This document shows, in pieces, positions 3,774-50,251 of a stretch of DNA of 50,251 bases. The first letter of the stretch is position 1, and each line of letters starts with the position of its first letter. The position numbers and the translations under genes were made by a program. Source of the stretch: Rhodospirillales bacterium. Its GTDB lineage: Bacteria; Vulcanimicrobiota; Vulcanimicrobiia; Vulcanimicrobiales; Vulcanimicrobiaceae. The stretch covers positions 1 through 50,251 of the forward strand of contig JAYTXC010000067.1 of NCBI GenBank assembly GCA_043743145.1, in the 5' to 3' direction. The notes under the pieces were generated by a model, which did no database searches, had not been told where the DNA came from, and saw only the letters and a program-made list of their open reading frames with translations.

Positions 3774-6700
3774 AAAACGCTTTCGAAATACGCCGAAGCG
3801 ACGGAGACGGCCGCCGCGCGATTGTCGACGTTGAGTTTACGTAAGATCCGAGCCACGTGGTTGTTGATCGTGAACGGACTGAGTTTAAGCGCAACCGCGA
3901 TCTCTTTGTTACTTCGACCGCGAGCGATCAATCGCAAGACTTCACGTTCGCGTTCGGAGAGACCGAAGTTCGTCGCTTCGCTTCCACGCGCAACGATGAG
4001 TGAGTAGCGGGCGACGAGTTCCGCGCCGGGCGAAGCCCCGATCGTTTCGAAGAGGCGACGTTTGTACGTGCGAAAGACCAGCCGCGCAGCATCGAACGTA
4101 TCGGATTGCGCGTAGAGTTCCATCAACAACATGATGGTTTCTTCGTCGAGTGGATCGAGTTCGTGCGCGAGCCGCGCGCTCGCGACGGCGACGGAACGAT
4201 CCCCGCTCGCCGCGGCGATCCGAGCGAGGGTTCGATTCGCGTCGACGGCCGCCGTACGCCACTGTGTAACGAAGGGCGCGAGCCATCGCGTGACCGCCCG
4301 ATCCTTGGGCGCGGCCGCGAGGTCGCGCGCAACGGGTGCGAGTAACGTGCATGCTTCGCTCGGAGCGTTGCGGGCGAAGAGCAGCTTTGCGCGACCGAGC
4401 ACCGCGAGCGCGCGTTGCACATCGCTCGGCCCGACGTGTTCGTTGCGCAATCCAATGGCGTTGCTATTGGAGAAGATGTAGTTGCCCGCACCCTCGACAT
4501 CGGGTTCGAGCGCGCGGCGTAAGGCGTGCAGCGTCACGCGGAGCGTCACTTCCGAGCCCGAATCGGCGTCGGGCCAAAGCGCAGCGAGCAACGTCGCTCG
4601 CGGAACGGCCGTCCCAGCGAGCACGAGAAACCGCAACAATTCCGCCGCTTTTTTACGCGTCCAACGCCCGTCGCGCTCCCCGAACGACGCCGCGCCGATC
4701 GTAACGCGAAGTTCGCCGATCACGTCAACGACGAGCGTTTCGACGTCGAGTTTCTGGGGCAGCGACGCGAGCGATCGCGCCGAAATTGCGACGATTTGCT
4801 CGCTATCGCGGAGTAACGCACGCGCGATACGCGATGCGCGTTGCCCATCGAGAGCGGCGAGGAGACGCATCGCCGCGATGCGACCTTCCGCCGAAGCCGT
4901 TGGATCGAGTGCGAGCGTTTCGTACGCATTGCTATCGACTTTACGCGCGCGCAAATACCCTTCGGCGCGCGCGACCGAGACACCGATTCGAAGAGCTCGC
5001 AACAAGACCGTTTGCGCAGCGAGCGGAGCGGCATCGAGCGCGAAGGCTATGCGGCCGTTTTCGATCGCGATTACGATATCGTCGATCTCGCTTCCGCTCT
5101 TCGCATCATCGCGATCGTCGCAAGCCGTACGATGCAATCGCGCGACCATCGCACCGACGCGATCGCCGAGCGCATCGTAGGCGCACCGCGCGGAATCGAA
5201 CGCAATCGCGGCCTGCGCGTTGCCTTCACTCGATTCGATCAATCGCGCGCGTGCGAGCAAAACGTTCGCAGTCATTCCGCGATCGTCGATGAACGTCGCA
5301 CGCGCCTCCGCGCTTTCGAGCGCCGTGCGAACGGCGGCGAAATCCCCGGTTGCAAGCGCGATCTCGACGCGAAGCAGATCGTGTTGAATCCGGATGAGCG
5401 CGTTGCGTTGCTGGATCGAACTGCGCAGGTCCGCATACAGATCGCTCGCGAGTTCGACGTTGGGCGGATCGCATGCGAGCGCGCAGAGCCCTTGGAGGAT
5501 GATCGCGTCGGCGCGTTCGTCCTCGTTGTGCGTGGCACCGAGTCGCTCTTCGGCGTCTTTGGCGAGCGCGAGCGCACGCGGCAGATCTTCGCGCAACATA
5601 TAGTACGCGCGCGCTTGCATGAGCAACGCGAAGCCGACGTGAAAATCGGCACTCCCACGAAAAAACTCTTCCGCGAGTTCCGCGTATTCGAGCGCCTTGT
5701 GCCATTGCCCGCGCCATCCATGCGCGATCGCGATGCCGATGAGGATCGGATCCGTGTGACGTTCTTCGGCAAGCTCGAGACGTTCGGCGATGCCCAAATG
5801 CTCGAAGGCTTCATCGTACGCACATCGCGCCGCAATCGCCATGCCCAAAAGATAATGACCGATGCGACGATAGCCTTGACCGCCGTCGAACTCCGGGGAT
5901 TCTGCAATTGCGAGCGCTTCGCGAAAGAAGCCTTCGCTTGCCGCGAATGTTCCGTGCCCCTGGAGTCGAAAATTTCCCGACGCGACGCCGCGTTCGAGTA
6001 ATGCGATACACGTCGTGCGACGATCGCCGAGCGCGCGCGCGGCTTTATAGCACGACGCGAATTGCTCCGTCGCCGCATCGTACCGACCGATACGCTGGAG
6101 CGCGAGCCCGTGCAGGCGGTAGAGCATGGGCTTCTGCCGCTTAACGTCGTCGGGGACTTGACTGAGCAGATTGAAGAGTTGCGGCAAACGATCCGAATAG
6201 CGAATCGCGACCATCGCCTCGTGCACGTACTCGACGATTTCGAAGAAATCGCCCGCTTCGATGAGTTGGCCGAGCGCTTCGATCGTCTCGCCGCGATTCC
6301 GCAGATATTCCGAATATCGCCTGCGTTTCGCGCGTTCGGCTTCCGGCGCTTCGACGCGCATGCGGCGCAACAGAAACTCGCGAAAGAGCTGATGAAACTG
6401 CCAGCCCATCGCCAACTTCTCGAGATAAACGCCACGCGTTGCGAGGCGCTCGATTGCGGCCGCCGCATCGTCGCGGCCGAGTAACATCGTGGCCGTCGCT
6501 TCGTCGAACGATGCGGGAATCGCAAGTGTCATCAGATCGTCGCGATCGCCCGGCGCGAGATGCGAGACGACTTCTTGCGCGAGAAAATCGAACGCATGAT
6601 CGCGTACGCCCGCGAAGATCGTGTCGAACGACGCTCCGCGAGAAGCGGCGAGCGACGCGCCGAGACGCACGGCAATCGTCCAGCCTTGCGTTTGGGTTGC

Positions 6701-7333
6701 GAGGCGATCTCCGCGCTCGCGATCGCCAACGAGTTCGGCCGCTTCGTCGGCGGTGAAGCGCAGGTCGCGTTCGGCAATCTCGATGAGCCGCCCGGCATTT
6801 CGTAACTTTGAGATTGGGGCGAACGTGAGCGGTCGGCGGGATGCGAATGCCGCATGCACGCGCGGCGGCATCTCGCGGACCAATTCTCCGACGAATGCGA
6901 CCGTTGCGACGTCGTCGAGGACGCTGTGGAGATCGTCGAAGAACACGACCAAATTCTCGGACCGCTCCTCGGTAACGATGTAGAGTTCGTTGACGAGCGC
7001 CCGTGCCACGAGCACGGGGTCGGCGATACCGGCATCGACGAGCCGCTGCGCCGAGTCGCCGAGATCGGGAAGAACCGCATGGAGTGCCGTGCCAAGCCGC
7101 TCCACGAACGCTGAAAGCGAGGCATCGCGCGCGGCGAGCGCGACCCACGCCGTCGTGAACTTGGCAACGCCGAGGCGGCGTTGCCACGCGGACATAACCG
7201 TCGATTTGCCATAGCCGCCACTGCCCACCACGAGCGCCGCCGTGACCATCGGAAGGCGATCGGCGATCGCGTCGAGGCGCGGCCGGTCGAGGAAATAGTC
7301 CGCATCCGGATTGGGCGGCCGGCTGGAGATCAT
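3770..7333 (-). CDS. Large ATP-binding LuxR-family (LAL / MalT-like STAND) regulator with an additional SARP (winged-helix + BTAD) domain
   Basis: ORF track 3770..7450. It has Walker A GSGGYGKST in a MalT-like N-terminus and a long TPR-like helical middle. Then comes a SARP-type module (VIGELRVTIG...LLAALWPDADSG...LHALRRALEPD...YAQSDTFDAARLVFRTYKRRL), followed by a terminal LuxR HTH (LSEREREVLRLIARGRSNKEIAVALKLSPFTINNHVARILRKL). The start is placed at ATG 7333 (GGAGAA 9 nt upstream); the ORF-track start at 7450 remains possible. Confidence 0.85.
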   Translation of the reverse strand: MISSRPPNPDADYFLDRPRLDAIADRLPMVTAALVVGSGGYGKSTVMSAWQRRLGVAKFTTAWVALAARDASLSAFVERLGTALHAVLPDLGDSAQRLVDAGIADPVLVARALVNELYIVTEERSENLVVFFDDLHSVLDDVATVAFVGELVREMPPRVHAAFASRRPLTFAPISKLRNAGRLIEIAERDLRFTADEAAELVGDRERGDRLATQTQGWTIAVRLGASLAASRGASFDTIFAGVRDHAFDFLAQEVVSHLAPGDRDDLMTLAIPASFDEATATMLLGRDDAAAAIERLATRGVYLEKLAMGWQFHQLFREFLLRRMRVEAPEAERAKRRRYSEYLRNRGETIEALGQLIEAGDFFEIVEYVHEAMVAIRYSDRLPQLFNLLSQVPDDVKRQKPMLYRLHGLALQRIGRYDAATEQFASCYKAARALGDRRTTCIALLERGVASGNFRLQGHGTFAASEGFFREALAIAESPEFDGGQGYRRIGHYLLGMAIAARCAYDEAFEHLGIAERLELAEERHTDPILIGIAIAHGWRGQWHKALEYAELAEEFFRGSADFHVGFALLMQARAYYMLREDLPRALALAKDAEERLGATHNEDERADAIILQGLCALACDPPNVELASDLYADLRSSIQQRNALIRIQHDLLRVEIALATGDFAAVRTALESAEARATFIDDRGMTANVLLARARLIESSEGNAQAAIAFDSARCAYDALGDRVGAMVARLHRTACDDRDDAKSGSEIDDIVIAIENGRIAFALDAAPLAAQTVLLRALRIGVSVARAEGYLRARKVDSNAYETLALDPTASAEGRIAAMRLLAALDGQRASRIARALLRDSEQIVAISARSLASLPQKLDVETLVVDVIGELRVTIGAASFGERDGRWTRKKAAELLRFLVLAGTAVPRATLLAALWPDADSGSEVTLRVTLHALRRALEPDVEGAGNYIFSNSNAIGLRNEHVGPSDVQRALAVLGRAKLLFARNAPSEACTLLAPVARDLAAAPKDRAVTRWLAPFVTQWRTAAVDANRTLARIAAASGDRSVAVASARLAHELDPLDEETIMLLMELYAQSDTFDAARLVFRTYKRRLFETIGASPGAELVARYSLIVARGSEATNFGLSEREREVLRLIARGRSNKEIAVALKLSPFTINNHVARILRKLNVDNRAAAVSVASAYFESVL

Positions 7334-7526
7334 GGCACGCTCTTCTCCGCCCGATTGAGACCTACCACCGTGCGGGCCCATACGCTCGAACACGCTTCCC
7401 GCGCGAGACATGCGACCGCCGGGCGGCGTTCGGGCTGCTAGGGCAAACATGCCCCAACTATGACGGGCCCGGCGACCGAAGGCGCGTTGCCTCGAGCGCG
7501 TGCGTTTAGGGAGTGCTAACTAACGC

Positions 7527-10500
7527 CTAGAGTTTGATTTCTAAATTGAGCGCCGCTTGGATCGGCAGCGTCGTGCCGACAAAGCCCGTGTTGAGATTGT
7601 TATTGAACACCCCGTACGGATACTTGAACTGGACCGGCGTGCCCGCAAGGGGGATAAAGTTGCCCGACGGCCCCAGCCCATTTCCACCCGACGGCAACTG
7701 CGAGTAGACGCAGATGCGCTTGTCGTCCCACGCATACCCGCGCTGGAAACACGTATCGACGAGGCCCGTGAGCGCGAGTGAGATCTTGACGTTCTTCGCC
7801 GCTTCGTACGACGCCGCAACGTTGAACGTGAGCCGCGATGGCTGATCGAAGGCACCGATCGTGTCGAACTTTCCCGTGAACGCATCGGGAATGAGCAAGA
7901 ACGAATTGCCGGAGAGCGCCGATCCACCGCACGATTTGGGGTCTGCCGCAAACGAGCCGTTCGCGGCCGCGATGCCCGTCGACGTGCAGCCATTCGGCGC
8001 GTAGCCCGGATACGATAGCGGTGAACCATACTTCGCACCCGAGCTATACGTGAGGCTCGGCGTGATCGTCGCACGTTTGTGCTTATAGCTTACGATGAGC
8101 GACGCGACGTGCGGCGTCTCGTAGCCATTCTCTCCCGTGAACGCTTGCGGGATCTGATCGTAGGTCGTGTACTGGGCGCTTCGATCCATCAGCGGTTGCA
8201 CGGCAGCACCGAAATACGGGTTGCGCACTTGCACGCTCGTCGTATCCGTGGAGGCAAACGTCGCTGCCGCATTGGGATTGGTCGCGCCCGGTGCGAGCCC
8301 GCAGAGTGCGGCGTTGGCTTTCGTAATCGTCGCACACGCCGACGTGTACGAGTTGTACTCTTGGATGTATTGGTTGAGCCCGTCGATCACGTTCGTGCCT
8401 GAGGGGAAGTCGTTATACCGGATGCGGCTGCGTGTGTAGGTGTACGCGAGTTGCGACGCCAGACCGTCGCGACCGAATTCGCCTTTCTTGATAGCAAGTT
8501 CGAGACCGCTCGAAGTTTGCTGGCCGACATTGAATCCCGCGACCACGCCGCCCACCCCGATCGGCACCGGCTGCAATTGATTGCGCGTGCTGCGGTAGAA
8601 CGGCGTAAGTTTGAACGAAATATCCGTACCGTGCAAATGTTTCTCGAGTGAGAAGTCCGCGTTATACGACGTGTCGGGTCGCAGATTGTGGATCGGCGTG
8701 TTGTAGCCGAGCGTGAGGAAGTTCGCGCCGAGGAAGCTCGCGAGATCGGAGTTGACCGCGTCGTATTGGACCCACGACGTGTTGACCGGCCGTGCGTACA
8801 CGCCGAACGAACCGCGCAACACCGTATCGCTATCGATTGCATACGTGGCACCGAAACGCGGCTGAAAGATCGTTGCGGAGATATTTTTGGCCGTCGTGTT
8901 GCGCAGGTTGGCTTGGCGATAGCCCGGCCCGAGTTTCGCACACGATGCGTCGGTCGCACCGGGGCCGATGTTGACGGGCGCGAGGCCGCCCAGCCGATAG
9001 CAATTCTCGTTGTTGTATGCATTGAACCAGAACGCACGTGCGGCATCGCCCGTCGTATCGGAGAGCCGGTCGTTGTAATTCTCCACGCGCGCGCCGAGCG
9101 TGATCGTGAGTTTGTCGTTGGGCCGGAACTGATCGGTAATCGCGCCTGCGGTAAACGCGGGCGCGACTTTATTGAGCCGCGTGTTGCGGAATCCGGCATC
9201 GGTCGCGAGCCACTGCGCGGTCGTCGTCGTGCCGTCGGGAGCGGTCACCGTCGCGCTACCCGTCGGCAGAGTATATGCGGGATCGGCGGGCGACCCCGGC
9301 GCGTTGCCCGGAAATTTACCGCGCGCGCCGTCGTTGAAGCAACTGGCAACGGCAGCCGTCGCGGGATCGTAACAATTCCCGCGCGCGTCGACGAGATTCG
9401 TGAACGAATATCCCGGCGTATTGCCAGGGAAGGACGACGAAAACGTGCGGCGCACCTGGGCCGCGGTGAAGGAGCCCGTGAGCGAAAGCAGATGTTTACT
9501 CGAGAGTTGGTTCGAGTAGTTTGCGTTAAAACCGAACGTGTGGCTCGGCAGCTCGTAGTCGTTGAGCTCACCGCTGTAATAATTCGTGAATTGGGCGTTC
9601 GCCGGTCCGCCGATGAACCAATTCGAGTATTCGGTGTACCCGTAGAGACGCAAGTATGATGACGAGCTAAAATTACGTTGGTACTGTAGTTTCGTCAACG
9701 CGACGCCGTTATCGGAATAATCGCGATCGTTATTCGGCGCGTTCGCTCCGAACGCGCGATAGCCCGGCCGATAGTTCTGCTGGTAGACCATCCGAACGTT
9801 GGTCGGATCGACGGGTGCGTATATCGCGCCCGTATACGTATACCCATCGTGGAAGAACGCGTTCCCGTTGTTGCCGACGGCCTGCGCGACGTTGGCCGGG
9901 CCACCCTGATCGTTGATGCTGCTGAAATATTTGGCGACGACTTCGCTCGTAAGATAGAGCAATTGGATATCGTCTTTTCCACCGTCGCCGTGATGTGGAA
10001 TACCGAGGTGCAGGTTGACGACGTTCTCGCGATCGGTCGTCGTTGCGATCGAATACGTGGTGCCCGGCGCGTAGTTGATCGTTCCCGCCGTGCCGTCGTA
10101 AAGATTGAAGCGGCCCGGAATATACACCGGGTAGAAAAGTTGCGGATCGCTCGCGCCATTGAATTGATCGGCGTAGCGATAATCGTTGTTCACGCCCGCG
10201 AGGCCGACGTAATACGAAAAGAGTCGATTCTTCGTGGCGCCGCCCGCTTCGAAAGAAAACTTGTGGTAGAAGCTCGGACCGCCGACGCCGATGTTCGCTT
10301 GTGCGAAGCCGGGATACGTGCCCGTGCGGATCACCTGATTGACGTATCCCGCGATCCCCGAGGCGTCGGCGGTTGCGGGCGTGCCGCCCGTGTAGACTTG
10401 CAGCTCTTGCTGACCGATGCTCGAGAGCACGGTTTGCGGCGCGTTATCGTACACGCGATTAACCGGGATGCCATCGAGTTCGTAGCCGACCTGGTCGATA

Positions 10501-11060
10501 TCGCCACCCCGGATGCTGACCGTCTGATACCAGCCCTGCTGGCCTTGCTGAACGTTGACCCCCGGCACCGATGCAATCGCGCTGTAGGCGGAATTGAGGC
10601 CGCCCGGCCCCCCGAGGGCCTGCGCCGCTTCGGCACCCGCGGCGTTGACCGAGTACACGTCGCTCGTCGTGCCAGGGCGAATGAGATCGTTCGAGGCACG
10701 GGCCTTGACGCGACCGATCGTCGCGAGCGCTTTCGTCAACGTCACGGGAAGCGTCTGCGTTTGATCGGAGAGCACCGTGACGCCGGTAAGCGATGCCGAA
10801 TCGTACGACGCGAGCTCGATGCTGATCATGTACGTGTCGGGCGCGAGTGAGATAAAGCGAAACGCACCCGTACTATCGGTCGTCGTCGCGACCGATTGTG
10901 ATGGCGAGACCGCGTTCACGCGCGCGCCGGCGAGCGGCCCCTGTGTCTTCGCATCGACGACGCGACCGACGATGCCCCCGGTCGTTCCCGCGCGCGCTCC
11001 GCCGAGCACCCCGACGACGAACACGAAGACCAGAAGTAAATTACTACACGTCCGTACCAT
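7527..11060 (-). CDS. Outer-membrane TonB-dependent-receptor-type barrel with N-terminal carboxypeptidase-regulatory-like domain (Oar-like)
   Basis: Signal peptide LLLVFVFVVGVLGGARA. CarboxypepD_reg-like N-domain: GGIVGRVVDAKTQGPLAGARVNAVSPS...TDSTGAFRFISLAPDTY. Plug-like segment: TVSIRGGDIDQVGYELDGIPVN. The remaining ~900 aa are rich in Y/G/N/T, as expected for a beta-barrel. Confidence 0.8.
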   Translation of the reverse strand: MVRTCSNLLLVFVFVVGVLGGARAGTTGGIVGRVVDAKTQGPLAGARVNAVSPSQSVATTTDSTGAFRFISLAPDTYMISIELASYDSASLTGVTVLSDQTQTLPVTLTKALATIGRVKARASNDLIRPGTTSDVYSVNAAGAEAAQALGGPGGLNSAYSAIASVPGVNVQQGQQGWYQTVSIRGGDIDQVGYELDGIPVNRVYDNAPQTVLSSIGQQELQVYTGGTPATADASGIAGYVNQVIRTGTYPGFAQANIGVGGPSFYHKFSFEAGGATKNRLFSYYVGLAGVNNDYRYADQFNGASDPQLFYPVYIPGRFNLYDGTAGTINYAPGTTYSIATTTDRENVVNLHLGIPHHGDGGKDDIQLLYLTSEVVAKYFSSINDQGGPANVAQAVGNNGNAFFHDGYTYTGAIYAPVDPTNVRMVYQQNYRPGYRAFGANAPNNDRDYSDNGVALTKLQYQRNFSSSSYLRLYGYTEYSNWFIGGPANAQFTNYYSGELNDYELPSHTFGFNANYSNQLSSKHLLSLTGSFTAAQVRRTFSSSFPGNTPGYSFTNLVDARGNCYDPATAAVASCFNDGARGKFPGNAPGSPADPAYTLPTGSATVTAPDGTTTTAQWLATDAGFRNTRLNKVAPAFTAGAITDQFRPNDKLTITLGARVENYNDRLSDTTGDAARAFWFNAYNNENCYRLGGLAPVNIGPGATDASCAKLGPGYRQANLRNTTAKNISATIFQPRFGATYAIDSDTVLRGSFGVYARPVNTSWVQYDAVNSDLASFLGANFLTLGYNTPIHNLRPDTSYNADFSLEKHLHGTDISFKLTPFYRSTRNQLQPVPIGVGGVVAGFNVGQQTSSGLELAIKKGEFGRDGLASQLAYTYTRSRIRYNDFPSGTNVIDGLNQYIQEYNSYTSACATITKANAALCGLAPGATNPNAAATFASTDTTSVQVRNPYFGAAVQPLMDRSAQYTTYDQIPQAFTGENGYETPHVASLIVSYKHKRATITPSLTYSSGAKYGSPLSYPGYAPNGCTSTGIAAANGSFAADPKSCGGSALSGNSFLLIPDAFTGKFDTIGAFDQPSRLTFNVAASYEAAKNVKISLALTGLVDTCFQRGYAWDDKRICVYSQLPSGGNGLGPSGNFIPLAGTPVQFKYPYGVFNNNLNTGFVGTTLPIQAALNLEIKL

Positions 11061-17707: not shown

Positions 17708-19669
17708 TTACGCGCCCGTGAGGGTTTTACTCGATGTGCTTCCGATCGAGCGCGGGATCGCTGCGACTTTGCGGCGCTTCACCGGACGGTTAATCGTGAT
17801 GACGGCACGTGCATGACTGCCACCGTCGTGGCGACGCGTCGCCCCGAATTCAGCCGCGAGCGCGCGAACGATGAAGAGGCCGCGCCCCGATTCCGCGAAC
17901 GTGTCGGCGGGAAGATGCGGCGCATGGGTGAAGCCGCGGCCGCGGTCGAGAACGCTGAGCACCGGAAGCGCGCCCGAAGCGTCGAGCACGACTTCGCACG
18001 ATCCCGGAGCGTGCCGCACGACGTTCCCGACGAGTTCGCTAAAGATCATGTTCGCGTCGTTGAGTTGCGCTTCGTTCGCACCCGCCGCGACCAGGGCTGC
18101 GGAAATCGACGCGTGCGTTTCGTGCGCGGCCGCGCGATCGTCAGAACGAAACGTGAACCGGCGAAAGCGCGAATCGCCATCATCACGATCGCAGTCGAGT
18201 GCGAGAATCGCGACGTCGTCGGTCGCGCCGTTGGGGAGCACGAGCGCCGCGAGACGATCGGCTGCGGGAATCGTCGACGGCACGCCGACGCGCGCCACAG
18301 CATCGCGCAAACGTCGTTCGCCCGCCACGAAGTCGTGTGTCGATTCGACGAGCCCGTCGGTGTAGAGTGCGAGAAACGATCCCGCGACGAGAACGATCGC
18401 GCGTGCCTCGGTGTCGCCTTTGCGCCGCACACCGAGCGGCAATCCGGGAGCGGCGAGTTCGACCACGCTCCCATCGGGAAGCCGTACGAAAGGCGTCGGA
18501 TGCCCCGCAAGTGCGTACGTGAGCACGCGCGTCACGGGATCGAAAACGCCGACGAACGCCGTCACCATGCGATCCGATGCGTCTTCACGAAGCGTCCGAT
18601 CGGCCGCTTCTAAGATCGCGATCGGATCGGCGAGGATTTGCGCGGCGCCGCGCATCGCCTGGCGCATCGCGACCATCGTGATCGCAGCTGCGAGGCCACT
18701 CCCTGCAACGTCGCCGATCGAAATGACCACCCGCCCGTCGAGCAATCGTAACGCATCGTACCAATCGCCTCCGACCGCCGCTTCGCGTTTGCCCGCACGG
18801 TAAAGTGCCGAAAACGTCAGCCCCGGAACGTCGGGAAGACGCGCGGGTAACGACGCGCGTTGAAACGCTTCGGAGACACGATGTGCGACGGCAAACCGCG
18901 CTTCGAGATTCGCTTGCTGGACCTTATGATCGTCGATATCCGTGCACGTCCCGAACCAATGGACGATCTCGCCGCCGGGATCGCGAAGGGGTGCGGCGCG
19001 CGCGAGGAACCAGCGATACACGCCCTCTTTTCCGCGCAGACGCATCTCGATCTCGTACGTGATGCCTTCTTCGAGCCCGGCTGCCCACTGTTCGCGCACA
19101 CGGGCCACATCTTCGGGCGAAATCACGTCCCAAAAGGCGGTCGAACCGCGCAGCAGATCGTCGCTCGCGAGACCCGTATACGCAATCCACGCCTCGTTGA
19201 CATACTCCATCGCGCCCGTGGCATCGGCGCGCCAGACGAGTTGTGGAATCGCTTCGGCAATCGCCGCGAAATTGCGTTCGCGCATCGCCGAGCCTTCGCT
19301 CGCAATCGCGCGGAGACGATCCGCGTTCTCATCCGCGATCCGTAGCGAATCGGCACGATGCGATCGGCGTAAGAACTCGTCGTAGCGTTCCACGGCGACG
19401 AAAACGATCGTGGAGATGATCGCGAGGACGAGCGTTTCGATCGCGACCGTTTGCCATGCGCCACCATGCGGCACGCGTCGCTCGGCGACTGCGAGAAAGA
19501 CGGCCACGACGACGCCAATGACGACGGCCGCACGCAACCCGTACGCGCGCGCGAGCAAGACGAGAGGGACGATCTGGGCGTACACCAGATGGAGCGACGG
19601 CATGACGGCATCGAGCGCCGCGAGCGCGACGCCGAGGGCGATCGCGAGAGCGGCGGTTTTAGCTCGCAT
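17708..19669 (-). CDS. Membrane sensor: TM region - PAS - PP2C/SpoIIE phosphatase - RsbW/SpoIIAB-like HATPase kinase domain
   Basis: N-terminal TM helices. PAS: IPQLVWRADATGAMEYVNEAW...YRWFLARAAPLRD. PP2C: VGGDWYDAL...GDVAGSGLAAA...LYTDGLVE. C-terminal HATPase: ELVGNVVRHAPG...VLDRGRGF...GRGLFIVRALA. The start is set at ATG 19669, inside the last codons of ddl. The track start at 19750 would overlap ddl by 92 nt. Confidence 0.8.
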   Translation of the reverse strand: MRAKTAALAIALGVALAALDAVMPSLHLVYAQIVPLVLLARAYGLRAAVVIGVVVAVFLAVAERRVPHGGAWQTVAIETLVLAIISTIVFVAVERYDEFLRRSHRADSLRIADENADRLRAIASEGSAMRERNFAAIAEAIPQLVWRADATGAMEYVNEAWIAYTGLASDDLLRGSTAFWDVISPEDVARVREQWAAGLEEGITYEIEMRLRGKEGVYRWFLARAAPLRDPGGEIVHWFGTCTDIDDHKVQQANLEARFAVAHRVSEAFQRASLPARLPDVPGLTFSALYRAGKREAAVGGDWYDALRLLDGRVVISIGDVAGSGLAAAITMVAMRQAMRGAAQILADPIAILEAADRTLREDASDRMVTAFVGVFDPVTRVLTYALAGHPTPFVRLPDGSVVELAAPGLPLGVRRKGDTEARAIVLVAGSFLALYTDGLVESTHDFVAGERRLRDAVARVGVPSTIPAADRLAALVLPNGATDDVAILALDCDRDDGDSRFRRFTFRSDDRAAAHETHASISAALVAAGANEAQLNDANMIFSELVGNVVRHAPGSCEVVLDASGALPVLSVLDRGRGFTHAPHLPADTFAESGRGLFIVRALAAEFGATRRHDGGSHARAVITINRPVKRRKVAAIPRSIGSTSSKTLTGA

Positions 19670-20594
19670 CCACGAGCGCACGGCCGCGATCGAGCGCGGC
19701 GCGCGCCAAGCGCTCGACGAGCGCGTCGAACGATATTCCGGCCGCCGCACAGACCTCGGGAAAGAGACTCGTCGGCGTCATGCCAGGCAGCGAATTGATC
19801 TCGAGAATATACGGCCGCCCCGTTGCCGTCACGATGAAATCGGTGCGCGAATAATCGCGCAAACCGAGCATGCGGTGCGTCGAGAGCGCGAGCATTTGCA
19901 GGCGATGCGCGAGGTCATCGTCGATGCGCGCAGGCGTTTCATGGCGGCTCCCGCCCGATGAATACTTCGCGTCGTAATCGTAAAATTCGGAGTTCTGCGG
20001 GATGATCTCGACGATGGGGAGCGCCGCGCCGAAGAGCACGCCGCAGCCGAATTCACGACCGGGCACGAATTCTTCTGCGAGAATCGTCGAGCGACTGATG
20101 GAGAGATCGAGCATCGCGCGCGACCATTCTTCGTGCGTGCGCACGATCGAGACACCCGTACTCGAACCTTCGGCGCGCGGCTTGACGACGAGCGGAAGAT
20201 TGAGCGATCCCGGCAAGAGCGGCAACGTGCCGCCATCGAAATCGAAGGTATCCCAGGCGGGCGTCGGAAGGCCCTCGGCCGAGAGTAACTTTTTGGTTAA
20301 GTGCTTGTCCATCGAGATCGCACACGACCGGAGATCGCTCCCCGTATAGGGCACGTGGAGCCAATCGAGCACGCCTTGAATCGTGCCGTCTTCGCCGCCC
20401 GCACCGTGGAGCGCGTTGAAGACGACATCGGGCTCGAGCTCGCCGATCGCACGCGCGAAGTTTGCATCGAAATCCAGCGTCCGAACGTCGTATCCCAAGC
20501 GCTCGAGTGCGGCTGCGATGCCGCGACCGCTCGCAATCGAGACCTCGCGCTCGGTACTGGGACCGCCCATCACGACCGCGACGCGCGCCTTCAT
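19659..20594 (-). CDS. ddl: D-alanine--D-alanine ligase
   Basis: Motifs VAVVMGGPSTEREVSIASG, HGAGGEDGTIQGVLD and EINSLPGMT. ATGA overlap with the murB stop. Confidence 0.92.
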   Translation of the reverse strand: MKARVAVVMGGPSTEREVSIASGRGIAAALERLGYDVRTLDFDANFARAIGELEPDVVFNALHGAGGEDGTIQGVLDWLHVPYTGSDLRSCAISMDKHLTKKLLSAEGLPTPAWDTFDFDGGTLPLLPGSLNLPLVVKPRAEGSSTGVSIVRTHEEWSRAMLDLSISRSTILAEEFVPGREFGCGVLFGAALPIVEIIPQNSEFYDYDAKYSSGGSRHETPARIDDDLAHRLQMLALSTHRMLGLRDYSRTDFIVTATGRPYILEINSLPGMTPTSLFPEVCAAAGISFDALVERLARAALDRGRALVDAS

Positions 20595-45725: not shown

Positions 45726-46373
45726 TCACGCGCTTTCGGGCGCAGGCGGCGTTTTCACGGGACGCGGCCGCGACACGGCGGGGAGGCGTTCGAGGAGATC
45801 CGCGTAGACGTCGCGCACCGTGTCGACGAGCGCATCGATCGTGCCGTCATTGTCGATCGTGTAATCGGCGAGTTCACGCGCACGCTCGGGGTCGATTTGC
45901 GCGGCCATGCGTCGTCGTACGTCGTCTTCGGAAAAACCGCTACGCGAAACGACGCGCCCGATACGCGTCTCCTCATCGGCGACGATGAGCACGTTCGCAT
46001 CGCACGTCCGCGAGAAGCCGCCCTCGAAAAGCAACGGCACGTCGTGGATCACGATCTGTTGCGGCCCAGCGGCCGCTTCGCGCGTGGCACCGAGCCGCCG
46101 AACCTCCGGATGCACGATGGCATTGAGGTCGTCGCGCGCTCCCGGATCGTGAAAGATGACGCTCGCGAGCGCCGCACGATCGAGCGAGCCGTCTGGAGCG
46201 ACAACGCCGGGGAACCGCGCGGCGATCGTGCGTAAGCCAGGTGAACCCGGTGCGACCGCCGCGCGCGCGAGCTCGTCGGCGTCCACCACGAGCGCGCCGA
46301 GGACCCCGAAGATTTTGGCGACTTCCGATTTTCCCGAACCGATGCCGCCGGTGAGGCCCACGCGAAGTTTCAC
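45726..46373 (-). CDS. coaE: Dephospho-CoA kinase
   Basis: GTG 46373 (AGAGG 5 nt upstream) gives (M)KLRVGLTGGIGSGKSEVAKIF...VVDADELAR.... P-loop present. The ORF-track start 46589 is an Arg-rich extension. Alternative start GTG 46388. Confidence 0.85.
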   Translation of the reverse strand: MKLRVGLTGGIGSGKSEVAKIFGVLGALVVDADELARAAVAPGSPGLRTIAARFPGVVAPDGSLDRAALASVIFHDPGARDDLNAIVHPEVRRLGATREAAAGPQQIVIHDVPLLFEGGFSRTCDANVLIVADEETRIGRVVSRSGFSEDDVRRRMAAQIDPERARELADYTIDNDGTIDALVDTVRDVYADLLERLPAVSRPRPVKTPPAPESA

Positions 46374-46570
46374 GTCGGCCTCTTCCACGACGCCCGACAC
46401 TTTCGCTTGCCGCACCGTAACGGAACATTTCGTGCGGCGCGTGTTGCGTGAATTCGACGACGACTTGGCGCGCGGCGATCGCACATGACGACCGCAACCT
46501 CGCCCGACGCGCGGTCTTGCGAGCGGAGGAGATTGGCGGGCCCGAGCTCGCGCGCGAATGTGGCTTTCAC
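46370..46570 (-). pseudogene. Remnant of a tautomerase-family gene (5'-truncated, ~80-nt internal deletion, frameshifted)
   Basis: FARELGPANLLRSQDRASGEVAVVMCD matches AFRELGPGNLVRLQDGALRDVVVVMCD of the intact copy at 48331..48732. QVVVEFTQHAPHEMFRYGA follows in another frame. The stop TGA overlaps the coaE GTG (GTGA). Confidence 0.65.
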
Positions 46571-46663
46571 TTCGGTACCGTAGCGACATTATCGACCGCG
46601 GCCCCGATGCCCGGGTCGAAACGTGGGTGACTCGCGGTGCAACCGCAACGTGTTAAAGTGAGC

Positions 46664-47278
46664 ATGGAGCGTTACTATGATCTTGCCTTCGGACCGAGCG
46701 TTCGCGAGGCGCAATCCGAGGATGGCAGCCGCGACCGCTACGCACGCGCCGCCGCTGCGCGACCCGTGCCGCTCGGCCTCGGGCCCGATGAGCGCGCGTT
46801 CGTCGAATCCGTCGACGGCTTCTACCTAGCAACCGCGACGAACGAGGGCTGGCCCTACGTACAGTTTCGCGGTGGGCCGCCGGGCTTTCTCAAGGTCCTC
46901 GACGCAACGACGCTTGCCTTCGCTGACTTTCGCGGAAATCGACAACTCGTAACCGTCGGCAATTCCCGCAAGGACGATCGCGTCTCACTCTTCATCATGG
47001 ATTACGCGAAGAAAGAGCGACTCAAACTCTTCGCGCGCATGAACGTCCGAGATGCGACCGGCGATCCCGAGTTACGCGAACGGCTCGCGATGCCCGGCTA
47101 TCCGGCATCGATCGAACGCCTCATCACCTTCGACGTCGTCGCCTTCGATTGGAATTGCAATCAACACATCCCACAGCGCCACACGCTTCCGGAGATCGAC
47201 GCGCTTACGCGACCGTTACGCGACCGTCTCTCTGGGCTCGAAGCGAGGCTCGCGGAGCTCGGCGAGCCGATGGCTTAG
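46664..47278 (+). CDS. Pyridoxamine 5'-phosphate oxidase-family FMN-binding protein
   Basis: Sequence MERYYDLAFGPSVREAQSEDGSRDRY...GFYLATATNEGWPYVQFRGGPPGFLKVLDATTLAFADFRGNRQ...DWNCNQHIPQR. This is a conserved split-barrel family pattern, recalled from memory. Confidence 0.7.
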   Translation: MERYYDLAFGPSVREAQSEDGSRDRYARAAAARPVPLGLGPDERAFVESVDGFYLATATNEGWPYVQFRGGPPGFLKVLDATTLAFADFRGNRQLVTVGNSRKDDRVSLFIMDYAKKERLKLFARMNVRDATGDPELRERLAMPGYPASIERLITFDVVAFDWNCNQHIPQRHTLPEIDALTRPLRDRLSGLEARLAELGEPMA

Positions 47279-47780
47279 CGTCCCGGCGATCTCTACCCCT
47301 TGCGCCGGTCGCCATCGCGCGTTCGTGAGCGAAACGAGAATGCCGTCGCGCCAGGCATCGTTGAGAAAGAGATAATCACGCGCATGCCCTTCGACGACAA
47401 ATCCGAGCTTTCGTAAAACTTGGCCGCTACGCTCGTTCGTCGAAGGCGTAGCGCACGACAGCCCGCGCGCCTTCCATCGCGTACCCTCGCCCCTCGCGGG
47501 TTGCATCGATCGAATAGCCGAGCATCGCCGATTGCAAAATGCCGCGAAAAATCGAGAGCAGGTCGATCGATCCGACGATATCGTCGCCATCGCGTTCGAT
47601 CGCGTCTCGAATCGACGCTTCGGTCGTCTCCTCGAGCGGACGCGTCGGCATCCATGGGCGTACGTGCTCGTCGTTCCGAGCAACATACGCGAGAAGTGCG
47701 TGGGCATGCGAAACGTATAAATACTCGAGACGGAGTCGCTCCGTAGACAGCGGTTCGCCAGACATACTTCGCGGCATCAT
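47216..47780 (-). pseudogene. GNAT (RimJ/RimL-type) N-acetyltransferase disrupted by an internal deletion and frameshift
   Basis: The N-terminal part (ORF 47427..47873) reads PLSTERLRLEYL...GYSIDATREGRGYAMEGARAVVRYAFDE and then stops. The C-terminal part sits in another frame (ORF 47216..47707) and reads NERSGQVLRKLGFVVEGHARDYLFLNDAWRDGILVSL. The usual ~15 aa between the AF-x-E and N-x-x-S motifs are missing. The start is placed after the terminator at 47804-47834. Confidence 0.55.
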
Positions 47781-47803
47781 GGTGATTTCGTTCGCACCGA
47801 AGG

Positions 47804-47834
47804 AAAAAAAAAGACCGGCATCGCCGTCGGTCTT
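47804..47834 (-). terminator. Rho-independent terminator downstream of the S1-domain ORF
   Basis: The minus strand reads AAGACCG-acggcgatgc-CGGTCTT followed by a T-run (9 consecutive T including 2 in the stem). It lies about 30 nt after the stop at 47866. Confidence 0.7.
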
Positions 47835-47865
47835 TCTCGATTCGAAACGCCACCGATCGTGACGT

Positions 47866-48296
47866 TCATTCATGACCGAACGATTCGGCGGTAACCGGTT
47901 TCATCGGAGAGCCGATCGAGCCGAGGTCGTCGTCGGCCGTCTCGGTTTCGAGTCCTTCTGGCGGGATGTCGGCGACGTGCTGGATCGAACCCGTGATGGG
48001 ACGCGTTGCGTGGTTGATCGTGAGCAGCGTAACTTCGACTTCTTGGCCGAGGCTGTACTGGATCGAGAGGGTTCGAACTCGCCCTCGGGTACCATCGCGA
48101 GCACGCTGCGAATGATCTCGACGAGGAGATAATTCGGCGTGACCTTGACGACTTGCGCGATGAGGCGTTGGCCTTCGACGAGCTCGTCGGCATACTCGAC
48201 CCACGGGTCAAGCGACGCGTACTTGGCGACTTTCGATTTTCCCGATCCGATACCGCCGGTGAGGCCAACGCATCGTTTTACGTTTGGCTCTTCCAC
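47866..48296 (-). pseudogene. Chimeric relic: 5' ~40 codons of a coaE paralog fused to an S1 RNA-binding domain, with a frame break
   Basis: VKRCVGLTGGIGSGKSKVAKY...YADEL parallels the coaE N-terminus, but the GTG start is mutated to GTA. It continues as an S1-like domain, VEGQRLIAQVVKVTPNYLLVEIIRSVLAMVPEGEFE. The rest, RTLSIQYSLGQEVEVTLLTINHATRPITGSIQHV...ESFGHE, is in the -1 frame (ORF 47866..48204). Confidence 0.5.
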
Positions 48297-48330
48297 GACG
48301 CCCCGTGCTTTGGCTCGTGTGTGCTTCTTT

Positions 48331-48732
48331 TCACTCGACGCCGTTCACGTCGCGTTCCGCCGCAGACCACTCCGTAGCGATCGCACCGTAACGGAACATT
48401 TCGTCCGACGCATGCTGGGTGAATTCGACGACGACTTGCAACGCATCGAGCGCGAACGACGACGCAACGAGCGCCACAATTTTTCGCGCGAGTGCCTCTC
48501 GCTGCGCCGCATCGCGACCGCGCCGAATATCACACATAACGACGACGACGTCGCGCAAGGCACCATCTTGCAGACGCACGAGATTGCCGGGACCGAGTTC
48601 GCGAAAAGCGATGCTCGGAACGTGCGATCGTGTCTCCATCGTTCCCGCGTAGAGCGCCGCGAGTTTACGTGCAAACGCGGCCTTTACTTGGGTCGGATAG
48701 GTTTTTGGGAGGTCGATCTGAAGAAACGGCAC
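48331..48732 (-). CDS. Tautomerase-superfamily protein (long, two beta-alpha-beta units)
   Basis: ORF track 48331..48771. GTG 48732 is followed by CCG, giving (M)PFLQIDLPKTYPTQVKAAFARKL..., with the N-terminal Pro expected for 4-OT-family enzymes. The second half reads DVVVVMCDIRRGRDAAQREALARKIVALV...VVVEFTQHASDEMFRYG. Confidence 0.6.
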   Translation of the reverse strand: MPFLQIDLPKTYPTQVKAAFARKLAALYAGTMETRSHVPSIAFRELGPGNLVRLQDGALRDVVVVMCDIRRGRDAAQREALARKIVALVASSFALDALQVVVEFTQHASDEMFRYGAIATEWSAAERDVNGVE

Positions 48733-48888
48733 CGTCATGACCTTGCCGACCGCGGCGTCGATTTCTTTCACAAAAGCCAGCGCCCCGCATTCGGTTCCCG
48801 TTTTTTGAACATGTGTTATCGGGCACGTTGTGGTAAAGCCTCGCCGACGGTGCGAACCGAGATTGTACGGTTGGCGTCACATTGGGGG

Positions 48889-49275
48889 ATGACGACCAAG
48901 CGCCAAGTGCTGCCTTCTATAGAAGGCCATTTTCCGACGACCTCTGCAGAGCTCGATACCCTGCCGTACGGCGTTATCGTGGTCGACACCAACGGCAATG
49001 TGGTCGATTATAATGCGGCCGAAGCGCGGGCGACGGGGTTGGAAAGCGAGCGTGTCGTCGGGCGTAATTTCTTCTCCGACGTGGCGCCGTGCACGCAGGT
49101 CCGAGCGTTCCAGGGCCGCTTCAAAGAATTCGTGTCGCGGAACGTCGTGACGATCGAACCGTTCGAATTTATCTTTCCCTTTGCGAAGGGGCCCGATCGC
49201 GTCTCGATCCTGTTCTATCGCGAGGCGCCGAAGAATGCGACGATTTCCATTATCGTCATGCGTGATGTCGGCTGA
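48889..49275 (+). CDS. pyp: Photoactive yellow protein (PYP) homolog
   Basis: This is the C-terminal 128 aa of ORF 48139..49275. Ours LDTLPYGVIVVDTNGNVVDYNAAEARATGLESERVVGRNFFSDVAPCTQVRAFQGRFKEFV aligns with H. halophila PYP (from memory) [61 protein letters not shown]. The chromophore Cys and the Tyr42/Glu46/Thr50 equivalents are conserved. Confidence 0.8.
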   Translation: MTTKRQVLPSIEGHFPTTSAELDTLPYGVIVVDTNGNVVDYNAAEARATGLESERVVGRNFFSDVAPCTQVRAFQGRFKEFVSRNVVTIEPFEFIFPFAKGPDRVSILFYREAPKNATISIIVMRDVG

Positions 49276-50251
49276 TGCGCGCACGGATTTCCCCCGCCAA
49301 CGCGCTCGCATGCGCCGGAGCCGTTTTGCTCGCCGCCATCGTCACGTTCCTCGCATTCGTGGAAGCATCGCTTGCGTTGCGAGCGACGGCATTCGCGTTG
49401 GCCGTTCTCTGTGCGATCCCAATCGCACTCGTCACGCGCCAGCGCCGCCTTTCGGCGCTTGAGGAAGCCGCGCGACCAACGCAAGAAATGCTCATGCGCA
49501 TGGTCGCCGATCTCGCGAAGCGCACGCTCGCCGTCTCCGAATCGAAACGGACCGCCGATCTCATGATCGATGCCTCGGCGCTCGGAATGCTCGCGCTCGA
49601 CGATTCCTTACGCGTGAAGCGGGGCTATGCGACTTCGATTGAATCGCTTCTCGCCACGAAAGAAATAGCGGGCCGCCCGCTCTTGGATGTGATACGACCG
49701 CTCTTGACCTCGAACGCGCTGCGGGCTACGGCGATCGTTCTGCCCCAGCTCTTCGATGCAAGCGTTGCTAACGAAGTGTTCGACGCGCCGAGCGACCTCG
49801 ATGAAGTCGAATTCATGACAAAAGCTGCAGACGGAACGACGCGGGCACGTTACTTACGGTTCCACTTCGAACGTGTGCGTGAAGACGGCCGAATTCGCGA
49901 TGTCTTCGCCGTCATCGAGGACGTGACCGAACGGGTCCGCATGGAGCGCGAGCTCGCGCAATCACACGTGCACGGCATTCGAAAATCTGCGCTGCTCGAT
50001 CTCGCGTTGCGCATGACATCCGAGCAATTCGGAGCGTTCGTCACGAAGATGCGCGCGCTCGCGGGCGAACTCGGCGATGCGTTGCGCCCGCAAGATTTCG
50101 CCCTCGTCGTTAACGGTCGCACGGGAGAACTCCGCACACGGCTCGATCGCGTCATGCGCATCGCAGGCGAACTCGGGGTCGAGGCGGAGAGCGTCGGCGG
50201 GGAATCATTCATCACCCTCGCGCAAACACTCGATGACGCAGCCGCCGACGC
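49275..50251 (+). CDS. Membrane-anchored PAS-domain signalling protein (partial; runs off the window; not in the ORF track)
   Basis: Own translation from ATG 49275, which overlaps the pyp stop as TGATG. It reads MRARISPANALACAGAVLLAAIVTFLAFVEASLALRATAFALAVLCAIPIALVTRQRR (2 TM). A PAS-like region follows: DLMIDASALGMLALDDSLRVKRGY...RYLRFHFERVREDGRIRDVFAVIEDVTERVRMEREL. Then comes a helical segment. The frame is open to 50251. Confidence 0.7.
   Translation, partial: MRARISPANALACAGAVLLAAIVTFLAFVEASLALRATAFALAVLCAIPIALVTRQRRLSALEEAARPTQEMLMRMVADLAKRTLAVSESKRTADLMIDASALGMLALDDSLRVKRGYATSIESLLATKEIAGRPLLDVIRPLLTSNALRATAIVLPQLFDASVANEVFDAPSDLDEVEFMTKAADGTTRARYLRFHFERVREDGRIRDVFAVIEDVTERVRMERELAQSHVHGIRKSALLDLALRMTSEQFGAFVTKMRALAGELGDALRPQDFALVVNGRTGELRTRLDRVMRIAGELGVEAESVGGESFITLAQTLDDAAAD

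Follow-up and report, generated by a model that had tools for sequence, protein, structure and literature searches.

A photoactive yellow protein homolog paired with a membrane relative of CheA-like kinases: a probable two-gene light-input module in uncultured Vulcanimicrobiaceae

At the end of a 50,251-nt stretch of forward-strand DNA (contig JAYTXC010000067.1 of assembly GCA_043743145.1; this whole stretch is called the window here), the gene for a small homolog of photoactive yellow protein (PYP) runs directly into the gene for a membrane protein, its partner. We consider it probable that this locus forms a light-input module of two genes in an uncultured bacterium of the Vulcanimicrobiaceae (Eremiobacterota), made up of a PYP and a membrane partner that would act by binding only. 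Comparative genomics provides strong evidence that the two genes form a functional unit, which is not the same as proof of physical contact between their products. How stand-alone PYPs pass on their signal is a long-standing gap, and the partner of the PYP of Halorhodospira halophila (Hhal PYP) is still missing (PMC12826048, PMC13250908, bioRxiv 10.1101/2021.06.01.446672). The membrane protein described here is a concrete candidate for such a long-sought signalling partner, with unusually strict genetics across seven lineages, and the strictness of its pairing with a PYP-like gene makes a direct binding experiment worthwhile.

A divergent PYP homolog with a predicted chromophore site

The PYP-like gene (48889..49275, plus strand; ATG-started, 128 codons plus stop) had been assigned to the PYP family in an original prediction made from the letters of the DNA, and database comparison bears this out. 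Its product matches the NCBIfam model for photoactive yellow protein (TIGR02373) with an E of 6.5e-26 (90.9 bits), compared with 3.5e-7 (30.4 bits) for TIGR00229, which models PAS domains in general. Among solved structures, the first 33 distinct sequences (E 3e-21 to 4e-17) are without exception PYPs, some of them engineered, and the best PAS domain of another kind is FixL (E 2.6e-4), so the best matches are PYPs and not generic PAS domains. Database relatives outside its own clade likewise carry the name photoactive yellow protein. Like the PYP domain of Ppr from Rhodocista centenaria (PDB 1mzu) and Hhal PYP, which give its best E values among solved structures (3e-21 and 1e-19, respectively), the protein consists of one PAS domain (about 125 amino acids) with Cys69 in VAPCT, Tyr42, Glu46, Thr50 and the hydrophobic pocket residues. 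The homology to PYP that had been proposed thus holds, but not the claim that it extends over the whole length, since the alignment spans residues of about 18-118 and conservation is lacking in the first 17 residues. Unlike Hhal PYP, with which it shares about 31% identity, the window protein has no conserved N-terminal cap, carries the replacements R52L, M100K, Y94F, Y98F and W119S, and is encoded without an adjacent gene for p-coumarate-CoA ligase (pCL) or tyrosine ammonia-lyase (TAL); its photochemistry is a prediction.

All nine residues of the p-coumaric acid (pCA) pocket listed in PMC12826048 are retained (Ile31, Tyr42, Glu46, Phe62, Val66, Ala67, Pro68, Cys69 and Phe96), and Ile31, Phe62, Val66, Ala67, Pro68 and Phe96 are identical to those of Hhal PYP. 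The attachment Cys in VAPCT, the Tyr and Glu in VDYNAAE that make hydrogen bonds to the phenolate of the chromophore, and the Thr of ATG, all picked out in the original prediction, are present; the Leu at the position of Arg52, also noticed then, is real and is no oddity, since Leu52 is the consensus residue of the PYP family (PMC12826048). Asp24, Leu26, Gly29, Gly37, Asn43, Glu46, Gly59, Asn61, Phe62, Phe63, Ala67, Pro68, Cys69, Thr70, Gly77 and Phe79 are invariant in an alignment with Hhal PYP and 16 homologs, and eight of the nine paired sequences compared retain all nine pocket residues including Cys69. Changes specific to the clade are F28Y, R52L, Y94F, Y98F, M100K and W119S, position 100 varying within the paired clade (M100K/S/G). 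Mutant work on Hhal PYP has established that loss of Met100 slows dark-state recovery by orders of magnitude. Because Met100 and Arg52 are both absent, the window protein would be expected to recover slowly and to have a long-lived signalling state.

A conserved Cys69 is the membership criterion for PAS_PYP (Xing, Gumerov and Zhulin 2022; PMC9664959), by which the window protein is a member of the PYP family. Judged from its sequence, we regard it as a divergent member that has kept the chromophore site. Its close relatives (P0002-P0006; 60-76% identity) come from metagenomes and metagenome-assembled genomes (MAGs) and are, where named, assigned to a Vulcanimicrobiaceae bacterium; the protein falls in a divergent clade from metagenomes of this family, which belongs to the Eremiobacterota. 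An exact look-up of the PYP-like protein in the assembly index gave no match, and genomic context was taken from relatives. The sequencing runs that hold the window stretch are sediment metagenomes (DNA). The closest PYPs outside the clade (P0007, P0008) have unrelated neighbour genes, which do not reveal how the pairing arose.

The partner is a predicted membrane protein with a PAS domain

The stop codon of the PYP-like gene (TGA, 49273-49275) and the start codon of the partner gene (ATG, 49275-49277) have one base in common, and the resulting TGATG junction (49273..49277, plus strand), read in the same way in the original prediction, is an arrangement typical of translational coupling. The first 325 codons of the partner gene (49275..50251, plus strand) are open in frame up to the window end. 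Contig L020, which matches the window collinearly (92-96% nucleotide identity), extends past the window end; there the full-length partner has 402 amino acids (P0026, 93% identical to the window fragment) and is followed by unrelated genes. Since this copy is complete and intact at 402 amino acids, the partner reading frame is uninterrupted beyond the window end, against the possibility of an interruption that the original prediction had allowed for, and encodes no additional domain.

No Pfam or NCBIfam model is matched above threshold by the window fragment, by P0026 or by the forms encoded in L017 and L018, and every database copy of the partner is unnamed or labelled hypothetical. The original description of a protein with two transmembrane (TM) helices and a PAS domain agrees with hydropathy and structure prediction, but it fell short in calling the protein a sensor of this simple kind, as the partner appears to be a truncated relative of CheA-like kinases that lacks the phospho-accepting His and any enzymatic output. 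The two TM helices (49293..49439, plus strand; about residues 7-28 and 33-55, separated by a loop of about 4 residues) are indicated by hydropathy, AlphaFold2 (AF2) and alignment, the Kyte-Doolittle scale placing hydrophobic segments near residues 5-30 and 25-56. Arg-rich segments flank the TM pair on both sides, which suggests that both termini are cytoplasmic. A long helix with an invariant RMVxDLAK motif (49440..49574, plus strand; about residues 56-100; alignment, AF2) leads from the second TM helix to a predicted cytoplasmic PAS fold (49575..49922, plus strand; about residues 101-216; AF2 block-mean pLDDT 89-97), followed by a helical domain with homology to histidine phosphotransfer (HPt) domains of the CheA P1 kind (49926..50251, plus strand), which continues past the window end.

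The AF2 model was built on a 105-sequence alignment that includes distant relatives from the profile search described below (pLDDT 88, pTM 0.67), an earlier model on a 7-sequence alignment (pLDDT 41.6) having been discarded. It consists of helices at residues 7-28 and 33-100, an alpha/beta domain at 101-216, a helical bundle at 218-364 and a low-confidence tail. Foldseek matches the modelled middle domain best to LOV, FixL and other PAS domains (target-normalised TM-scores 0.55-0.66), which confirms a PAS fold at the level of the model; in Pfam, PAS_4 is found below threshold (E 0.014 for the window fragment and 0.0022 for L018). Across nine partner sequences 57 columns are invariant. The distant partners L014, L017 and L018 have an insert of about 150-170 amino acids between the TM helices, with a weak, sub-threshold PilJ match in L018 and without Pfam match in L014 and L017, and in the window clade this inter-TM domain has shrunk to the short loop.

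Relationship of the partner to CheA-like kinases

A profile search with the partner against 1.84 billion representatives (E 1e-3 or better) gave 830 matches, of which 368 reach at least E 1e-10. The list starts with a handful of short proteins (369-547 amino acids) and continues mostly with proteins of about 700-750 amino acids, in which roughly 200 residues extend beyond the matched stretch. Pfam analysis of ten matches found Hpt and HATPase_c in all nine long ones (625-1340 amino acids), four of which have a weak PilJ N-terminal domain and two dCache plus HAMP instead. Compared with solved structures, the profile of the whole set matches CheA P3-P4 (1b3q, 6s1k; E about 1e-54) and also the P1 HPt domain of CheA (1tqg, 2ld6) and the periplasmic domain of PilJ (7zjr); NCBIfam likewise gives CheA for the C-terminal part of the long relatives.

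The short partners terminate about where the P3/P4-like region of these relatives starts, and a Pfam search for HATPase_c in P0026 (402 amino acids), L018 (518 amino acids) and L017 (547 amino acids) gave no match, as did one for Hpt in P0026. The joint alignment shows the phospho-accepting His of HxxKG in 90 of 95 long relatives and in none of ten short partners. In the window protein this column is occupied by Gly298 (codon 50166-50168), and Gly and Val replace the Lys and Gly of the motif. The partner resembles CheA-type kinases, and those with PilJ-like, PAS, Hpt and HATPase_c domains, in its PAS-HPt homology (E 2.6e-41 to P0035, profile positions 41-367) and in the common motifs LRxxDFA and DGxxFLxxV, and differs from them in having no HATPase_c (P4) domain and Gly298 for the His. 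These comparisons lead us to regard it as a relative of membrane CheA-like kinases which keeps the TM-PAS-HPt scaffold and has lost the phospho-His and the catalytic domain. Devoid of both, it would neither transfer phosphate at the HPt site nor catalyse phosphorylation, and would signal by binding. As a conserved and selected CheA-like derivative of this kind, the partner is of interest in itself. Classification as a methyl-accepting chemotaxis protein (MCP) or an Htr-type transducer was considered and rejected, since no MCPsignal match was found by Pfam or NCBIfam in the window fragment, P0026, L017 or L018.

The analysis of the partner also brings to light membrane kinases of about 700-750 amino acids that form a large family, apparently without a name (P0035-P0179; for example L019 5001-7241). 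The members scanned run mostly from a weak PilJ-like periplasmic sensor domain through a PAS domain and a CheA-P1-like HPt domain to a CheA-like ATPase, and show no Pfam match for a CheW-like (P5) domain; in some members dCache plus HAMP, or Reg_prop/Y_Y_Y, replaces the PilJ-like sensor.

Conservation of the pairing

Loci with a short partner were collected from the contexts of PYP relatives and of partner relatives and by scanning 185,579 GTDB species genomes as well as JGI metagenomes, and all these loci were searched with HMMs for both proteins. Wherever the DNA before the partner gene could be read, the gene is immediately preceded by a PYP-like ORF in the same orientation, and the dedicated pair suggested by the original prediction is thereby found in seven lineages by sequence: the window with L020 and L021; L001-L006 with L016; L007-L009; L013; L014, L015, L017, L027 and L028; L018; and L026. 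L029, which begins inside the partner gene, is uninformative on the pairing. The junction is TGATG in the window, L020, L001 and L007, a 4-nt overlap (ATGA or GTGA) in L014, L017 and L018, and a 1-nt gap in L013. Flanking genes vary across lineages, the neighbours in L018 and L026 being quite different, and the full-length kinase relative in L019 has no PYP gene nearby.

Between close lineages, dN/dS amounts to 0.14-0.26 for the PYP-like gene (up to 0.30 versus relatives) and to 0.20-0.30 for the partner, deeper comparisons being saturated; both genes are thus under purifying selection. The paired PYP-like sequences have 48-79% overall identity. The seven lineages have intact partner ORFs of 371-547 amino acids, which share about 24-35% identity when the deepest ones are compared, and the 547-amino-acid form is found on more than 50 contigs.

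Two of the pair-carrying MAG contigs, L016 (JANYGA010000209.1) and L018 (CAJCIN010000070.1), are titled 'Rhodospirillales bacterium'. L016 shares with L001 the gene order Amidohydro_3, Crp, DUF4126, CoaE and an identical 128-amino-acid PYP (P0003), and L001 in turn has its genes arranged as in the window and its relatives; an error in binning or naming may lie behind the label.

Chromophore supply and a canonical PYP paralog

The MAG GCA_054928035.1 contains, besides the paired PYP (L013), a canonical PYP with Arg52, Met100 and Trp119 (P0023, L010), and the gene of the latter overlaps a gene for an AMP-binding ligase, which is the usual position of pCL. Two metagenome assemblies each contain both the paired and the canonical type of locus. 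In published surveys, more than one PYP was found in 16% of genomes, and a pCL gene lay near only 30-32% and a TAL gene near 5-10% of pyp genes (PMC12826048, PMC9664959). Since so few pyp genes have them nearby, the lack of pCL and TAL at a locus is weak evidence against photoactivity.

Canonical PYPs (Arg52, Met100, Trp119) are encoded on five Vulcanimicrobiaceae-type contigs (L010 4339-5888, L011, L012, L022 and L023 10001-11553). In each case a gene for an AMP-binding ligase of 374-391 amino acids, which is probably pCL, stands directly after the PYP gene and is followed by a pirin gene on the opposite strand, and no TAL gene lies near these loci. About 1-2 kb upstream of the canonical PYP gene of L010 are genes for a response regulator and a small HisKA/HATPase kinase.

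A proposed mechanism and its alternatives

In the reading that we prefer, the first gene would encode a soluble, single-domain PYP paralog which most likely absorbs blue light by means of pCA bound to Cys69 as a thioester, the p-coumarate being loaded by a ligase encoded elsewhere. The second gene would be translated in step with the first and give a membrane-anchored protein facing the cytoplasm with its long helix, PAS domain and HPt-like bundle behind two TM helices. Its ancestor may have been a membrane CheA-like kinase in which a PilJ-type periplasmic sensor was followed by TM helices, PAS, HPt (P1) and a P3/P4 ATPase; the ATPase and the phospho-accepting His would have been lost in the partner, and the periplasmic sensor as well in the window lineage. 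Blue light would alter the conformation of the PYP, and the lit form may bind or release the partner, most plausibly PAS to PAS. Docking may then alter the helical bundle of the partner and cause it to engage or release a competent kinase or response regulator encoded elsewhere. The partner could serve as a decoy P1 or pseudo-substrate for a CheA-like kinase, or could sequester a kinase or regulator at the membrane. Arabidopsis AHP6 is a pseudo-HPt protein without the phospho-accepting His that competes in a phosphorelay and transfers no phosphate. It may be taken as a model for the partner by functional analogy only, AHP6 being a soluble protein of another kingdom with no PAS domain and no photoreceptor partner. 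That a stand-alone PYP gates a membrane pseudo-HPt protein, which in turn controls a phosphorelay by sequestration or as a pseudo-substrate, would be an undescribed route of PYP signalling, and we offer it as a tentative possibility. If true, it would provide the first defined class of non-enzymatic PYP transducers and give pseudo-HPt inhibitors a counterpart in bacteria. Photoactivity of the PYP and the output route of the partner are, in these uncultured organisms, functions deduced from sequence.

Several observations weigh against a light-input module with a pseudo-HPt partner. Neither a MIO-type ammonia-lyase motif nor an AMP-binding motif was found in six frames of the window, and Pfam scans of 20 of its ORFs gave neither family, in agreement with the original statement that TAL and pCL are lacking there; the MIO motif is also missing from 306 kb of related loci, and no pCL or TAL gene adjoins any paired locus. 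The 90.9 bits of the PYP-like protein lie below the curated equivalog cut-off of TIGR02373 (143.05 bits), because of which the protein is not an equivalog of Hhal-type PYP; this model recovers only about 20% of the PYP family (PMC9664959). On the side of the partner, a profile of the short partners alone matches no solved HPt or CheA structure, so the proposed HPt ancestry rests on the longer relatives, and no target of the partner was identified. A search for RNA-seq runs holding the stretch found none. The PYP-like ORF of L026 (5199-5567) carries Y42F, E46T, T50P and C69Y and still retains the pairing. Its product cannot form the thioester. Provided that the sequence of L026, a low-coverage long-read contig with a divergent, apparently frameshifted partner, is correct, at least one lineage would have kept the pairing beyond the loss of the chromophore site. 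The core job of the pair might then not be light sensing, and readings in which the contact between PAS protein and partner is what has been conserved stay alive.

One such reading, which we judge unlikely, is that the small protein, a PAS domain of PYP descent, has ceased to sense light in this clade and passes another ligand or redox signal to the membrane partner. The missing pCL and TAL genes, the clade substitutions F28Y, Y94F, Y98F, M100K/S/G and W119S, the score under the TIGR02373 cut-off and the paired lineage with C69Y, E46T and Y42F would all be in keeping with it, and redox neofunctionalisation has been proposed for some PYP homologs (PMC9664959). However, Cys69, Tyr42, Glu46 and the six other pocket residues are invariant in eight of nine paired sequences despite 48-79% identity, and with such a pocket it is hard to argue that the same ligand was lost. 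The low share of pyp genes with pCL or TAL nearby in the surveys cited above, and the pCL-like gene beside the canonical paralog in the same MAG, likewise speak against this reading.

It is improbable, in our opinion, that the partner is the true sensor by way of its own PAS or periplasmic domain and that the PYP-like protein is merely an accessory or chaperone-like subunit. The window clade has dispensed with the periplasmic domain yet kept the PYP pocket intact, and PYP is well established as an input module for signalling proteins, whether fused to them or next to them (PMC12826048, PMC9664959), although the partner does retain a well-folded PAS domain, the inter-TM region of L018 gives a weak, sub-threshold match of PilJ type, inserts of similar size without Pfam match occur in L014 and L017, and the pairing in L026 survives the loss of the chromophore Cys. 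Finally, the loss of the ATPase and phospho-His, in some lineages also of the periplasmic domain, and the lack of any Pfam or NCBIfam match above threshold could mark the downstream gene as a decaying, functionless remnant of a sensor kinase that stands next to PYP by historical accident, but this is very improbable in view of the intact 371-547-amino-acid ORFs in seven lineages at about 24-35% identity between the deepest, the dN/dS of 0.20-0.30 between close relatives, the 57 invariant columns in nine sequences, the spread of the 547-amino-acid form over more than 50 contigs and the tight junction (1-4 nt overlap or 1-nt gap) kept throughout.

Comparison with known PYP systems

The separate photoreceptor tied to a two-TM protein from the chemotaxis toolkit is reminiscent of the stand-alone clade B PYPs encoded next to sensor-less chemoreceptors in Leptospira and Salinibacter, of MCP-PYP fusions and of the sensory rhodopsin-Htr systems (PMC9664959, PMC12826048). 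Like the sensor-less chemoreceptors next to PYP, the partner of the window clade has no periplasmic sensor domain; unlike these receptors and Htr, it comes from the kinase (CheA-like) side and gives no match to the MCP signalling domain. A further parallel is found in Rhodobacter capsulatus, where a stand-alone PYP (Rc-PYP) and PBP, the product of an adjacent gene without enzymatic domain, form a light-dependent complex in vitro (bioRxiv 10.1101/2021.06.01.446672). PBP is, by its description, a soluble protein of 142 residues and is thereby set apart from the 402-amino-acid membrane PAS/HPt-like partner.

The original prediction held PYPs to be known from few, mostly proteobacterial lineages, a view overtaken by the present record of about 1000 sequences from many phyla including Eremiobacterota (PMC12826048, PMC9664959). 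It also took the downstream partners of PYPs to be largely unknown, which is still so for H. halophila and no longer so in general: catalogued operon or fusion partners comprise pCL, TAL, GGDEF/EAL, HisKA/HATPase, MCP, phytochrome, V4R, REC and BLUF (PMC12826048) as well as transcriptional regulators and sensor-less chemoreceptors (PMC9664959). A two-TM PAS/pseudo-HPt partner is absent from these two published lists, and this class of partner has not yet been described in them. The presence of PYP homologs in Candidatus Eremiobacterota (PMC12826048), Leu52 and multiple PYPs per genome have already been published, and the novelty lies in the type of partner.

The Eremiobacterota include a cultured phototroph with blue-light phototaxis, Vulcanimicrobium alpinus, whose photoreceptors are unassigned and which has a PYP homolog, WPS_26150 (PMC9758169). 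The scan of GTDB species genomes and the protein search yielded no partner labelled Vulcanimicrobium alpinus, which counts as a further point against our reading; a link of the pair to the phototaxis of this species was considered and is unsupported, since the pair was not detected there.

Gene neighbourhood and other features of the window

Upstream of the pair, the PYP-like gene is separated by an intergenic region (48772..48888), in which the promoter of the pair is presumed to lie, from a divergently transcribed tautomerase-like gene (48331-48771, minus strand). A GGGGG run stands just 5' of the ATG of the PYP-like gene. The scan for consensus promoters found none within 48772..48888 and nothing above chance in the scanned region around the pair, and terminator consensus matches around the pair were at chance level. 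Extended upstream, the frame of the PYP-like gene gives an ORF of 378 amino acids (48139-49275), which we rejected as a real gene: homologs have 121-153 amino acids, and the extension overlaps the gene on the opposite strand and is an artefact of the 63.5% G+C content. The tautomerase-like gene matches the tautomerase family only weakly (E about 1e-3), and the start Met of its product is not directly followed by Pro. Being a neighbour of the pair in four lineages and not in the others, it is probably not part of the PYP-partner unit.

The remainder of the window is ordinary chromosome by Pfam scan, with genes for citrate synthase, alanine racemase, a penicillin-binding protein, LptF/G and Lnt, as well as for a TonB-dependent receptor, a large LuxR-type regulator and a PAS-SpoIIE-HATPase_c_2 protein. 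The segments 46315-46608 and 48223-48762 form a direct repeat with 83% identity, in which the 5' end of coaE and the adjacent tautomerase-like gene are duplicated. The two copies enclose a PNPOx-like gene (46637-47278), a minus-strand gene for a GNAT acetyltransferase (47427-47873) and a minus-strand ORF (47901-48296) in which a 25-amino-acid CoaE N-terminus is fused to an S1-domain fragment. The related contig L020 shows the same arrangement, so the rearrangement is real and is not due to faulty assembly; other lineages have PNPOx and S1 downstream of the partner.

The PAS-SpoIIE-HATPase_c_2 protein (17708-19750, minus strand; 679 amino acids) combines in one chain a PAS domain, a SpoIIE-type PP2C phosphatase and an anti-sigma kinase-like HATPase_c_2 domain, and looks like a fused partner-switching module. 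The LuxR-type regulator (3770-7450, minus strand; 1225 amino acids) contains AAA_16, Trans_reg_C and BTAD domains and a C-terminal LuxR/GerE helix-turn-helix, and next after it stands the gene for the TonB-dependent receptor (7527-11060, minus strand; 1176 amino acids), which carries a CarboxypepD_reg domain.

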